Positions 10,884 to 27,426 of a DNA stretch of 64,000 bases are shown here, in pieces; the first letter of the stretch is position 1, and the number at the start of each line of letters is the position of its first letter. Below the pieces are notes generated by a model. That model saw nothing but the letters and a program-made list of their open reading frames with translations. It was not told the DNA's origin and did no database searches. Source of the DNA: Moorena sp. SIOASIH. GTDB lineage: Bacteria; Cyanobacteriota; Cyanobacteriia; Cyanobacteriales; Coleofasciculaceae. Where the stretch lies: contig NZ_JAAHIH010000001.1 of assembly GCF_010671925.1 (NCBI RefSeq), positions 805,053 to 869,052 on the forward strand, in the 5' to 3' direction. Both the position numbers and the translations under genes were made by a program.

Positions 10884-13877
10884 ATGATTACAGCTCTAGG
10901 GTATTCCATCACTGAGTCAATCGAATCTGGCACTAGAACTGTACTTGGTATTGCCTATTGGTGGCATGATTTAGCCAAGTCTTACCTAAAGACCTTCCTC
11001 ATCTTGATCACTCATCAAACCGAAAGCCATATTGGGAATGAAAACTATGGAATAAAAACTATGATAAAAGCCAGGCTTGTCGGCAAAACTAGATTGCCCA
11101 AACCATTTGTTTGGACAGTCATTTTTATCTGCATTTTACCCTATCTTCTGCATCAATTAGGGGTTGATTTTAGTACCCATCAGGAACTGTTTGACCTCTC
11201 GGCAGCCTCTGAATGGGAACCCCATCAAATTAATGATGCCATGTACTCAGTCCTGTCCGGAAGTTTTGTACACACACTCCTGGAGTGGAGTGCTGTCTGT
11301 ACAGCGTTTTTTACGGTTTGCTTAGCCTTTACGAACTACAGCATCACTAAAGACCCAATCCTTCCTATCATCGGCGTATCACTTTTTTTTGCTGGTGTGA
11401 TGGATGCCTTTCATACTCTGGCTGCTGACCGCTTAATTGATGCTGTCGCCGATAATCGGAATTTAATTCCATTTACCTGGGCACTCTGTCGGCTTTTCAA
11501 TCCACTAATCCTGATTCTAGGAACTAGCCTTTTCTTAAGGAGAAGCTGGGTAGAAAAAAACCAAACCAGGAGCTTGGGTTTTGTCATTATTGTCAGCTTG
11601 GGGTTTGGGTTGATTGCCTATGGCATAATTCACATCTGTGCAACCAGCGAGATTCTACCGGAAACAACATTTCCCAACTCCATTATCACCCGACCATGGG
11701 ACATCCTGCCATTGCTTCTGTTTATTGCTGCTGGCATTTTTATTTACCCAAGCTTTCACCAACGGTATCCCAGTCTTGTCTCTTACTCCTTAATTGTGAG
11801 TACTATTCCCGATACAGTCGCCCAACTCCACATGGCTTTTGGTTCACAAGCACTGTTCGACAGTCATTTCCAAATCGCCCATTTCCTCAAAATTATTGCC
11901 CACCTTATTCCCCTAGTAGGATTAATACTAGAATCTCAGGGTACTTCTTGTACACTAGATCAGCTCAATAAACGTCTGATAGAAGAGATTGCTAAACAAC
12001 AACAAACAGAGGAAAAATTGCAAAGGTCAATCAAAGAATTATCAGATTTCAAGTATGCTTTAGCTCAAGGATCAATCCTAGCCATTACTGACCAAAAAGG
12101 GGTAATTACCGATGTCAATGAGCGGTTCTGTCAGCTCTCTCAATATTCTAGAGAAGAACTGATTGGACAAACCCATCTACTGATCAATTCCAATTACCAC
12201 CCCAAGGAATTCTTCCGAAACCTCTGGTCAATTATTGCCAGTGGTCAAGTTTGGCGGGGAGAAATTAAAAATAAAGCCAAAGATGGCACCTATTACTGGG
12301 TCGATACCACCATCTTACCTTTCTTGGATGATAGAGACAAACCTTACCAGTATTGGGCGATCAGAACCGATATTAGCGATCGCAAACAAGCTGAGGAAGA
12401 CCTAAAACAGGCAAAAGAAGCAGCAGTTCGCGCTGCGGCGCAAAGCGCAGTTGCCAACCGCGCCAAAAGCGAATTTCTCGCCAACATGAGCCATGAACTG
12501 CGCACCCCTCTCAATGGCATCCTCGGTTACACCCAAATCCTGAAACGCTCCAAAACCTTGACTCCTCAGTCTCTCAAGGGGATTGACATTATCCATCAAT
12601 GTGGTAATCATCTGCTCACCCTGATTAATGACATTTTAGACCTGTCCAAAATTGAAGCTGGTAAAATGGAACTCTACCAGACAGATTTTCATTTTCCGTC
12701 TTTTCTTCAGAACCTGATTGACATCTGCAAAATCCGAGTTCAAAACAAGGACATTTTGTTTACTTACCAACCCCTTTCTGAACTTCCCAACGGCATCCAT
12801 GCTGATCAAAAACGCCTGCGACAAGTGCTGATTAACTTACTGGGTAATGGGATTAAGTTTACTGACACTGGAGAAATTAAGTTTACAGTAAGTGTCCTTA
12901 AATCCAGGGAAAAGGAGAATGGACACATCAACAATAGCCAAGAACTGTTAACAACAATTCGATTTAAAATTGAAGACACCGGTATTGGCATGAGTCCGGA
13001 ACAAATCGAACGGATATTTTTGCCTTTTGAGCAGGTGGGGAATCCCTTAAATAAAGCACAAGGGACGGGATTGGGATTAGCCATTACTCAGAAACTGGTT
13101 CAGATGATGGGGTCTAAGTTAGAAGTAAGCAGCCAGTTGGGCATTGGCACTGTGTTTTGGTTCGATTTGCACTTAAAAGAAACCACAGCTGTATCCAAAC
13201 CCATGACTCCTAACACAGGGATTATTGGCTTCAAAGGTCAGCCACCCACAATTCTGGTGGTGGATGATAAGCAAGAAAATCGCTGGGTGATTGTCAATAT
13301 GCTGGCTCCCCTGGGATTTGAACTAGTGGAGGCTAGCAATGGTCAAGAGGCTTTAGAGGAAGCCACAGCATTTCCACCAGATCTGATTATCACTGACTTG
13401 TTGATGCCACAGATGGATGGCTTTGAGATGATCCGACAGTTACGACAATCCCCCCAATTGCACTCAAAAGTAGTGATTGCGTCTTCGGCTAGTGTATTTG
13501 ACACTGACAAGGAAAAAAGTAGTGAGGCTGGAGCGGATGATTTTCTGCCTAAACCAGTAGAGGCAGAAAAGCTACTAGAGATGTTACAAGTGCATCTGAA
13601 ACTGGAATGGATTTATCAAGCAAAGCAGGAAGGAGGAAGTAGAAAGAAGAAAAACATCTCATCTCAAACCATAGAGATTGTCCCTCCTCCAGTCGAGAAA
13701 CTTTCCCAACTTTACGATCTGGCTAGGGCAGGCTTAATCAATGACCTTTTAAAACAAATCGATAACCTAGAAAAATCCGATCCAAACACTATTGATTTTG
13801 TCCAACATATCCGTGAATTAGCTCAAAATTTTCAGTTGAAAAAAATTCGAGATTTTCTTAAAGACTATATTCAGTGA
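10884..13877 (+). CDS. Hybrid sensor histidine kinase. Order of domains: N-terminal multi-TM (MASE-like) membrane sensor, PAS, HisKA, HATPase_c, REC, then the conserved ~65-aa C-terminal tail. An alternative start is at 11061.
   Basis: [31 protein letters not shown]-box. N/G1/F/G2 boxes ([12 protein letters not shown]...DTGIGM...GTGLGLAI). A receiver domain (VVDDKQENR...[14 protein letters not shown]...KP). The tail [26 protein letters not shown]...[13 protein letters not shown]. Confidence 0.85.
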   Translation: [997 protein letters not shown]

Positions 13878-13995
13878 ATTCAGAAGATGCCTTTTTAATT
13901 TCATAACAAGTTATCTGTAGCATATTTTTTAGATTTCAGAGACTAATTACAAACAGTAAGCTTGATGCCATAAGTGACTAAACAAATAAAATTTT

Positions 13996-27000: not shown

Positions 27001-27426
27001 TCCCCCCAATTAAAGTCAGTAGTGGTGATTGCTTGCTCAGCCAGCGTATTTAATACTCACCAACACAAGAGTATTGAGTCTGGGGCGGACGAGTTTCTGC
27101 CCAAGCCAGTAGATTCAGAAAGACTATTCGAGATATTACGGATGCATCTGAGACTGGAATGGGTGTATGAAGGAAAAGAACAAGGAGAAAAGATGATGGC
27201 TGAAAACATCTCATGTCAAACTACAGAGATTATCCCTCCCCCAGCTGAAAAACTTGCTCAGCTCTATGATTTGGCCAGAACAGGCTTAATCAGCGAAATT
27301 TTAGAACAAGTGGATAATCTGGAAAAATCCGATGAAAAATTGGCGATTTTTGCCCAACATATCCAGCAATTCGCTCAAGGCTTTCAGGTCAAAAAAATCC
27401 AAGATTTCATCAAACAATACCTATAA
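24034..27426 (+). CDS. Hybrid sensor histidine kinase: TM, a ~330-aa periplasmic (Cache-like) domain, TM, two PAS domains, HisKA, HATPase_c, REC, and the conserved C-terminal tail.
   Basis: PAS signatures ([67 protein letters not shown]). The H-box [30 protein letters not shown]. The REC and tail ...[26 protein letters not shown]...[12 protein letters not shown]. Confidence 0.85.
   Translation: [1130 protein letters not shown]

Follow-up and report, generated by a model that had tools for sequence, protein, structure and literature searches.

A run of five tandem histidine kinase genes in the marine, filamentous cyanobacterium Moorena sp. SIOASIH very probably arose by expansion, within the Moorena lineage, of one cyanobacterial hybrid-kinase family, accompanied by the exchange of sensor modules in front of a shared C-terminal cassette. 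The genes lie in a 64,000-nucleotide (nt) stretch of DNA, referred to below as the window (contig NZ_JAAHIH010000001.1, positions 805,053 to 869,052), and occupy five + strand open reading frames (ORFs) at window positions 10884-13877, 13996-16215, 16598-18964, 20502/20697-23261 and 24034-27426, which we call HK1 to HK5. Downstream of them is a gene for a kinase with an N-terminal receiver (REC) domain, RK6. The explanation that we favour, with some reserve, combines tandem expansion and sensor shuffling with signalling from the array to RK6.

Alignment from the H-box to the C terminus identified one cassette, which consists of the dimerization and histidine phosphotransfer (DHp) domain, the catalytic and ATP-binding (CA) domain, REC, a variable acidic/Ser-Pro linker and a tail of ~65 residues, and the start of which is marked by the helix '..[22 protein letters not shown]'. 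Amino acid identity over the whole cassette is 68-92% among HK1, HK3, HK4 and HK5 (DHp, 83-97%; CA, 68-92%; REC, 70-91%; tail, 55-98%) and 51-55% between these and HK2 (DHp, 60-68%; CA, 49-55%; tail, 56-58%), from which REC is absent. The 30-residue H-box is identical in the first four and differs at 5 positions in HK2; the phospho-accepting motif ..[10 protein letters not shown] is found in all, with ITHEVRTPLN as the HK2 version. A Pfam search of the predicted window proteins, on which our domain assignments are based, recovered HisKA (E 1e-18 to 6e-23) and HATPase_c (E 1e-22 to 2e-25) in all five proteins, and Response_reg (E 2e-22 to 3e-27; motifs VVDDK...ITDLLMP...SASV...KP) in HK1, HK3, HK4 and HK5. 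These four are hybrid histidine kinases; HK2, with its REC deleted, lacks the receiver that the definition includes.

An earlier note on this DNA had claimed five tandem same-strand kinases at 10884-27426, a common HisKA-HATPase-REC-tail cassette in four hybrids, a kinase at 13996 that shares the transmitter and tail without REC, and a nearly invariant H-box. The ORFs, Pfam matches and alignments bear out all of these claims and add that HK2 is far more diverged than the other four. At the DNA level, a blastn self-comparison showed that each pairwise similarity between the genes starts at the H-box codons or a little before them.

Upstream of the cassette, comparison of the sensors with each other by BLASTP gave no match better than E=0.08. 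The note had called the sensors mutually unrelated, which holds at the sequence level but not at the level of domain type, as PAS domains occur in HK1 as well as in HK5, and the periplasmic domains of HK4 and HK5 are both of Cache type. In line with the note's MASE-like, multi-transmembrane (multi-TM) sensor with PAS and its CHASE sensor, HK1 has MASE3 and PAS before a cassette from ~12453, and HK2 has CHASE and an S-helix before HisKA, HATPase_c and the tail. The true start of HK1 may be near 11061; alignment with its Moorena orthologues begins at residue 57. HK3 has a TM-helical-TM sensor before a cassette (HisKA, HATPase_c and REC) from ~17522. Pfam gave no assignment for this sensor, only sub-threshold similarity to TarH (E 0.09) and 4HB_MCP_1 (E 0.54), and the label 'four-helix-bundle/CHASE3-like' proposed for it is not established; one distant relative was found, in a locus of our comparison set (L036). 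HK4 has a weak dCache_3 match and HAMP before a cassette from ~21819, and next to it, at 19829-20689 on the + strand, is a gene for a PstS-family periplasmic binding protein (PBP), a lipoprotein with the lipobox LVSC (PBP_like_2, E 1.4e-36; 142.8 bits against TIGR02136, under the cut-off of that model). The start of HK4 is most likely at 20697 (Met66 of the ORF) rather than at 20502, because the equivalent Met is the first residue of the homologues, and the longer version of the ORF runs into the PBP gene. HK5 combines a periplasmic domain similar to HK_sensor_dom_bact/dCache_1 with two PAS domains before a cassette from ~25957. For both HK4 (a Cache-like sensor with HAMP and an adjacent PstS-like lipoprotein) and HK5 (a large periplasmic domain with two PAS domains), the description in the note was upheld.

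To place the array among its relatives, we scanned 185,579 species genomes, one per species, with exact peptide patterns; the counts of relatives given below are lower bounds. The synteny sought in related cyanobacteria was found, with the whole array present at 90-93% nt identity in Moorena sp. SS36440bin_2 (L002) and Moorena sp. SIO3H5 (L001 and L003), including the REC-less HK2, the PBP gene, RK6 and two genes that follow it, RR7 and RK8. The full cassette, including the tail, occurs in more than 517 relatives among the matches listed, which belong to many filamentous cyanobacteria, at 50-60% identity. The best match outside the array, among more than 500 relatives listed, is ≤60% identical, and the three members of a second, separate Moorena array (L064) are 52-55% identical to the HK cassettes. 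The note had stated beforehand that the shuffling idea fails if the cassettes resemble unlinked kinases as much as they resemble each other; for four of the five genes, they are closer to each other than to any outside kinase listed. In distance trees, HK1, HK3, HK4 and HK5 form, together with their Moorena orthologues, one clade nested in the cyanobacterial family, with genes of Symploca, Caldora and Hormoscilla among its nearest outgroups, and HK2 is placed on a long branch outside this clade. Between orthologues, the sensors change faster as proteins than the cassettes do: the ratio of nonsynonymous (dN) to synonymous (dS) divergence is 0.43-0.84 in the sensors (highest in HK3) and 0.17-0.45 in the cassettes.

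These results bear on whether the locus was assembled horizontally from unrelated kinases, with the likeness of the cassettes reflecting general conservation of hybrid kinases. The GC content does vary across the array, if only slightly (0.40-0.47), but the mutual identity of the HK1, HK3, HK4 and HK5 cassettes exceeds that to any listed relative, the phylogeny makes them monophyletic and contradicts such an origin, and a rare insertion common to HK1 and HK2 and a leader common to HK3 and HK4 (both described below) also count against it. We regard horizontal assembly as highly improbable.

The youngest pair, HK3 and HK4, shares two arms of homology that flank unrelated middles. The right arm (17426-19026 versus 21722-23323; 93% nt identity by blastn) starts ~30 codons ahead of the H-box and ends 62 nt beyond the stop codon, and the left arm (16462-16741 versus 19445-19703) is 79% identical overall and ~90% identical in the part that is coding in HK3. 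In HK3, the left arm (segment A, 16462-16741, + strand) contains the promoter/leader and the first 48 codons. Its counterpart upstream of the PBP gene (segment A', 19445-19703, + strand) is a decayed copy of the same promoter/leader and 5' coding region, interrupted by in-frame stops. The middles comprise 684 nt in HK3 (the TM-helical-TM sensor) and 2018 nt in HK4 (the PBP gene and the Cache-HAMP sensor). As both Moorena relatives have the same structure, this event predates their divergence. Segment A', also present in both relatives, carries a promoter-like TTGGTA-17-TATAAT at 19459-19487 and, judged from its sequence, probably serves as the promoter of PBP-HK4. Consensus scans for promoters and terminators gave counts not above shuffled expectation, with only the TATAAT conserved in A and A' standing out, and an Rfam scan of 9500-32500 for the duplicated leader as an RNA element returned no match.

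The homology between HK3 and HK4 ends inside an array of seven AGGGAGT heptamers (18977-19026) that begins 12 nt past the HK3 stop codon; after HK4, again at 12 nt, the same heptamer is repeated 12.7 times with a degenerate continuation (23274-23391). Dense short tandem repeats fill kinase spacers more widely (16258-16308, 18977-19026, 19249-19348, 23274-23391, 23549-23852 and 29659-29695), with units that include the heptamers AGGGAGT, CTGCTCC (14 perfect copies) and CTCCCTG, an octamer and units of 19-26 nt. We take them to resemble the short tandemly repeated sequences of filamentous cyanobacteria. An ORF at 23489-23878, between HK4 and HK5, was rejected as a gene, as it has no Pfam match, lies within tandem repeats and is poorly kept in relatives.

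The cassettes of HK3 and HK4 have continued to exchange sequence. Cassette dS between HK3 and HK4 in the window is 0.16, compared with 0.245 and 0.221 between orthologues, and sensor dS between HK3 and HK4 orthologues is 0.11-0.125. Informative sites in a four-taxon comparison divide into 30 with the orthologue pattern, 24 with the paralogue pattern and 13 that are crossed, and along the sequence the two main classes fall into clusters (18 runs versus 27.7 expected; P=0.005, runs test). Over the last 200 nt, HK3 and HK4 in the window are 99% identical, versus 89-93% between orthologues. The HK3 and HK4 cassettes have thus undergone repeated gene conversion in tracts and evolve in concert. Older paralogue pairs have dS of 0.8-1.9, with no recent exchange visible.

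Conversion that can be demonstrated between HK3 and HK4 also lends something to a different history, in which the array is of ancient origin, Symploca at least has it too, and the Moorena-specific clade results from repeated gene conversion rather than recent duplication. An array in Symploca sp. SIO2D2, which includes a PBP gene and an HK4-type gene with the family H-box, fits that history too. We nevertheless consider it unlikely, as dS of 0.8-1.2 among HK1, HK3 and HK5 indicates no recent homogenization, the Symploca and Caldora cassettes sampled fall outside the Moorena clade, and, in the loci sampled, no family cassette outside Moorena carries an orthologue of the HK1, HK2 or HK5 sensor.

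HK2 lacks ~132 codons between conserved flanks, which blastn aligns with HK1 at 12411-13111/15148-15848 and 13666-13855/16007-16196. A remnant of REC strand beta1 is left in HK2 (KIVDIQEQNNN versus [12 protein letters not shown] in HK3/HK4), and the gap with its remnant indicates that the receiver was lost by in-frame deletion. Directly before the H-box, HK1 and HK2 alone, among 45 H-box sites examined, have a seven-residue (one heptad) insertion. On the basis of this unique insertion, we interpret HK2 as a paralogue of HK1 that arose locally and has accelerated since the loss of REC; the dN of its cassette between orthologues is 0.074 versus 0.03-0.05 for the other cassettes. The HK2 tail was also considered as a sign of local origin but is not decisive (59% identity to HK1 and 58% to HK5, but 61% to a family member at locus L012).

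The input module of HK4 occurs elsewhere, and on a different transmitter. Its sensor has a homologue in Symploca sp. SIO2D2 (55% identical) that is followed by the family H-box, and homologues in Calothrix and another cyanobacterium (45-48% identical). In the Calothrix-type homologues, the sensor and HAMP are fused to another class of transmitter, which is non-hybrid and has an HEINNP-type H-box. In both Calothrix rhizosoleniae and Symploca sp. SIO2D2, the gene directly upstream of the HK4-type sensor is a PBP_like_2 gene with 62-67% identity to that of the window, so PBP and sensor travel as one input module on two classes of transmitter. The Symploca gene, truncated by the end of its contig (L082), shares an array with two more members of the family, of which one has dCache_1-HAMP input and the other REC-PAS.

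LuxP-LuxQ and TorT-TorS are binding-protein-dependent kinases. The HK4 arrangement resembles them in that a gene for a periplasmic binding protein stands directly 5' of a kinase with a Cache/PDC-type domain and the pair is kept across genera; unlike LuxP and TorT, the binding protein of HK4 belongs to the PstS family (PBP_like_2), and the pair is known here from its genes alone. HK4 probably senses through its binding protein.

Many family members, HK2 included, retain the S-helix 'LE.RVEERT.EL..AKE.A..AN[RK]AKSEFLAN'. In HK1 and HK5 it is the C terminus of PAS, and in HK4 the HAMP helix, that is joined to the same '..AKExAxxANRAKS' helix. Because PAS, HAMP and S-helix inputs are all joined there, the helix directly N-terminal to DHp is the natural fusion point.

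Diverse inputs and tandem copies are traits of the whole family and are not special to this locus. Among 74 other family members, inputs include dCache_1 (44), HAMP (39), MASE1 (14) and GAF (7) and, more rarely, Ser/Thr kinase with AAA_16 (4), REC and PAS (3 each) and CHASE2, ETR1_N and a fused phosphonate-binding domain (2 each). Two or three full family members occur together in 7 of 80 scanned loci, and further tandem family arrays were found at L024, L029, L034, L052, L053, L055, L058, L064 and L082. Two of these loci deserve mention in their own right. At L064 (Moorena sp. SS36440bin_2, contig NODE_255, 1301-9144), two of the three family kinases have the same 385-residue sensor, and the pair looks like a duplication before any sensor swap. 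At L082 (Symploca sp. SIO2D2, 1418-3598), a REC-PAS input precedes a full cassette (REC-PAS-HisKA-HATPase-REC-tail), a kinase that could be driven by another kinase. The proposal in the note that sensor modules are shuffled onto a constant cassette is well supported by the monophyly of the cassettes, the arms shared by HK3 and HK4, the Calothrix module and the diverse inputs of the family.

As the note had described, the cluster is followed on the + strand by genes of REC-HK, REC and REC-PAS-HK type, which Pfam resolves as RK6 (27740-29230; REC-HisKA-HATPase_c, with HisKA of the HEINTP type), RR7 (29731-30150; a single-domain receiver) and RK8 (30081-31985; REC-PAS-HK). At 48 of 81 family loci, a family kinase is followed on the same strand, within 700 nt and usually after 20-110 nt, by a homologue of RK6 (34-41% identity over ≥96% of its length). 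These 48 loci are spread over many genera and include the nearest outgroup, Symploca. After the RK6-like genes, no third gene is conserved beyond heterogeneous REC-containing ORFs, so the conserved unit is a two-gene pair. RR7 is kept in Moorena and has sporadic relatives near family loci elsewhere; RK8 was found in Moorena only among the loci examined. No curated NCBIfam equivalog corresponds to RK6. The start of RK8 is probably at ~30147, which overlaps the stop codon of RR7 and suggests translational coupling, and the receivers of RR7 and RK8 are paralogues with 44% identity (29731-30530).

Moorena has five upstream kinases for one RK6, and the presence of an RK6-like gene downstream of a family kinase at 48 of 81 loci makes it plausible that five sensors feed one RK6. 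We hold this convergence, suggested by gene order, to be possible at slightly less than even weight. The 'multi-input phosphorelay' of the note fared less well as a whole: the synteny of the RK6-like gene speaks for it, but RR7 and RK8 are not conserved, and no HPt (histidine phosphotransfer) protein or DNA-binding response regulator is encoded in the 64-kb window. With no such HPt protein, and with an HPt-like tail that has no conserved histidine (described below), a strict His-Asp-His-Asp relay is not supported.

The same array could instead consist of insulated pathways, its genes being in tandem only because duplication is local, with each kinase having its own unlinked partner and RK6 pairing only with HK5, as the ancestral pair. 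In the majority of other genomes, one family kinase is indeed accompanied by one RK6-like gene, identity among HK1, HK3 and HK5 is down to 55-70% in the tails and CA domains, and the kinases are separated by intergenic regions, with HK3 and PBP-HK4 each having its own copy of the duplicated promoter. Expanded kinases also show a tendency to turn into orphans and to diverge in expression (Alm et al. 2006, PMC1630713). Against insulation stand the identity of the DHp H-box/helix-1 over 30 residues in HK1, HK3, HK4 and HK5, the gene conversion that keeps the HK3 and HK4 cassettes alike and the lack of any other linked partner gene, and on this balance we find it rather unlikely.

The proposed signalling from the array to RK6 has parallels elsewhere. 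By its description, the Hik16-Hik41-Rre17 pathway of Synechocystis, with a membrane kinase and a soluble kinase, resembles a family hybrid kinase followed by the soluble RK6. The two Synechocystis kinase loci, slr1805 and sll1229, are presumably not adjacent, unlike the Moorena kinases and RK6. Genetic evidence places Hik16 (membrane) and Hik41 (soluble) in one pathway (PMC3264485). Related hybrid kinases can also remain in one network, as in the GacS multikinase network, in which shared ancestry predicts retained cross-talk (PMC8175716). As with GacS, RetS and LadS of Pseudomonas, several related hybrid kinases have different sensors, with one output there and one proposed here; unlike the Moorena locus, which is known from its sequence, that network involves HPt domains, kinase heterodimers and dispersed genes, and has experimental support.

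The cassette ends in the ~65-residue tail, encoded at 13674-13874, 16015-16212, 18761-18961, 23058-23258 and 27226-27423 in HK1 to HK5. It has no match to any Pfam family, HPt included, even at E≤10, and a search of a tail profile against PDB sequences gave only chance-level matches to designed bundles. Structure prediction returned four short helices with high confidence. The best structural match of this predicted bundle is the HPt domain of RcsD/YojN; Foldseek found nothing significant, but its most probable matches are HPt domains too. A His at tail position 49 in the Moorena hybrids, with Ala in the REC-less HK2, first suggested a true HPt domain. The His is present, however, in only 10 of 56 family members, and no other His is conserved; together with the lack of a Pfam HPt match, this led us to reject a true HPt domain, and the tail cannot be a general phosphotransfer site. 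A profile search recovered the tail in 5,972 clusters at 50% identity (3,110 at E≤1e-10), nearly always at the extreme C terminus of proteins of 600-2,300 residues, with members outside cyanobacteria in Beggiatoa, Rhodothermales and Ardenticatenaceae. We read the tail, from its predicted fold, as an HPt-like (pseudo-HPt) domain that lacks a Pfam annotation, and would guess at a docking or regulatory contact with a receiver.

The order HisKA-HATPase-REC followed by a C-terminal segment, here predicted as four helices, resembles that of TorS, ArcB, BarA and RcsC/RcsD. Against NCBIfam models, the cassette scores best with TorS (267-348 bits versus a cut-off of 676.5), followed by BarA and ArcB, all below their cut-offs. 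Unlike TorS, ArcB and BarA, the Moorena kinases score far under the curated cut-offs, and their tail has no Pfam HPt match at its ~65 residues. More speculatively, and in our view quite improbably, the tail might be a pseudo-HPt docking domain that recruits RK6-type receivers in a widespread relay from hybrid kinase to kinase, with gene conversion keeping the Moorena copies compatible with RK6. If so, concerted evolution would preserve the convergence of pathways and not their insulation.

Put together, the explanation that we favour runs as follows. Each gene keeps a constant C-terminal module (DHp, CA, receiver and tail), and everything upstream of its first helix has been exchanged at the linker helix that connects DHp to a PAS, HAMP or S-helix sensor output. 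In the youngest pair, a unit of promoter/leader, sensor and cassette was very probably duplicated and its middle replaced, after which the HK3 and HK4 cassettes exchanged sequence by conversion. HK2 would descend from a local duplication shared with HK1, with its receiver later deleted in frame and its evolution faster since. Each kinase would sense a different cue, HK4 doing so via its binding protein and possibly responding to a phosphate-like oxyanion, and each would autophosphorylate on the H-box His and pass the phosphate to its own receiver; HK2, which has none, would transfer directly to a partner. All five would modulate RK6, the kinase of which would then act on a further regulator, forming a hub from many sensors to one kinase.

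Several points weigh against this explanation. The comparison set consisted of the collected genomes, with the unlinked kinases of the source genome itself outside it, and relatives were sampled by patterns. Concerted evolution could account in part for the monophyly of HK1, HK3, HK4 and HK5, which would to that extent be artefactual. Which way the HK3/HK4 swap went is ambiguous, because an HK4-type gene with PBP is already present in Symploca and the HK3/HK4 linker resembles that of the Symploca HK4-type gene. Three further points concern RK6: the case for convergence on it is made from gene order, an RK6-like gene is not downstream in 33 of the 81 family loci, and the gaps of 118-865 nt between the genes point to separate transcription units. 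The tail, finally, is the least conserved segment of the cassette among HK1, HK3 and HK5 (55-62%), which runs counter to what would be expected of a shared docking surface.

The array is flanked by unrelated genes, for UvrB, a giant TPS-TPR-CHAT protein and a MEKHLA protein upstream, and for a lactate permease, a serine acetyltransferase-like hexapeptide transferase, ThiC and FtsH downstream. The stand-alone MEKHLA-domain protein (E 1.5e-59; 9891-10388) is encoded directly 5' of HK1. Its gene is beside the array in both Moorena relatives and is not near family kinases in other genera; as it adjoins the array only in Moorena, we do not claim it as a component of the system. The 1348-residue protein with TPS-secretion, TPR and CHAT domains (5775-9821) is missing or mostly deleted in both relatives, with window position 5376 joined to 9860 in L001 and 6052 joined to 9389 in L002. 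Approximately 8 kb upstream of the array, a gene on the - strand (2265-2714) encodes a single-domain receiver of 149 residues.

On the other side, the lactate permease gene (32711-34285, - strand) has no counterpart at the syntenic position in Moorena sp. SIO3H5, where L003 joins 32389 to 34520. Farther downstream, at 40599-49985, a methionine-salvage-like gene set (ARD, 40599-41156; RuBisCO-like protein, 41185-42270; HAD, 44913-45383; class II aldolase, 49302-49985) is broken up by ORFs of group II intron type. These comprise an intact RT-maturase-HNH ORF (42516-44030, - strand), a split RT/maturase (46120-46920 and 46976-47716, + strand) and an RRXRR-HNH protein (47826-49151).

Lineage-specific expansion of histidine kinases with domain shuffling was described for the hybrid type-1b kinases of Desulfovibrio (Alm, Huang & Arkin 2006, PLoS Comput Biol, PMC1630713), in a study that found hybrid kinases to be especially prone to both processes and Nostoc to be among the genomes with major expansions. 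The features by which domain shuffling was recognized there were found here: the transmitters of the paralogues HK1, HK3, HK4 and HK5 are mutually closest, and their sets of N-terminal signalling domains differ. Unlike the paralogues in that study, the positions of which are apparently random, those in Moorena are still in tandem; unlike the cases described there, the Moorena swap has left a trace in the duplicated leader, and gene conversion between cassettes is measurable.

The principle is therefore already known, and the locus is a very clear new example of it rather than a new kind of system; none of these findings overturns current understanding. What the locus adds is its tandem layout, the fossil of a swap, concerted evolution that can be measured and an input module that includes a separate gene. 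It catches sensor swapping in the act, and the module swapped in brought its own binding-protein gene and sits elsewhere on another type of transmitter. Pinning the fusion point to the helix before DHp is useful for the engineering of chimeric sensors. As by-products, the analysis brought to light a very common HPt-like C-terminal domain that Pfam does not annotate and a conserved pair of hybrid kinase and REC-kinase in filamentous cyanobacteria. The array also offers a tractable system in which to ask whether hybrid kinases remain connected to a single partner after duplication.

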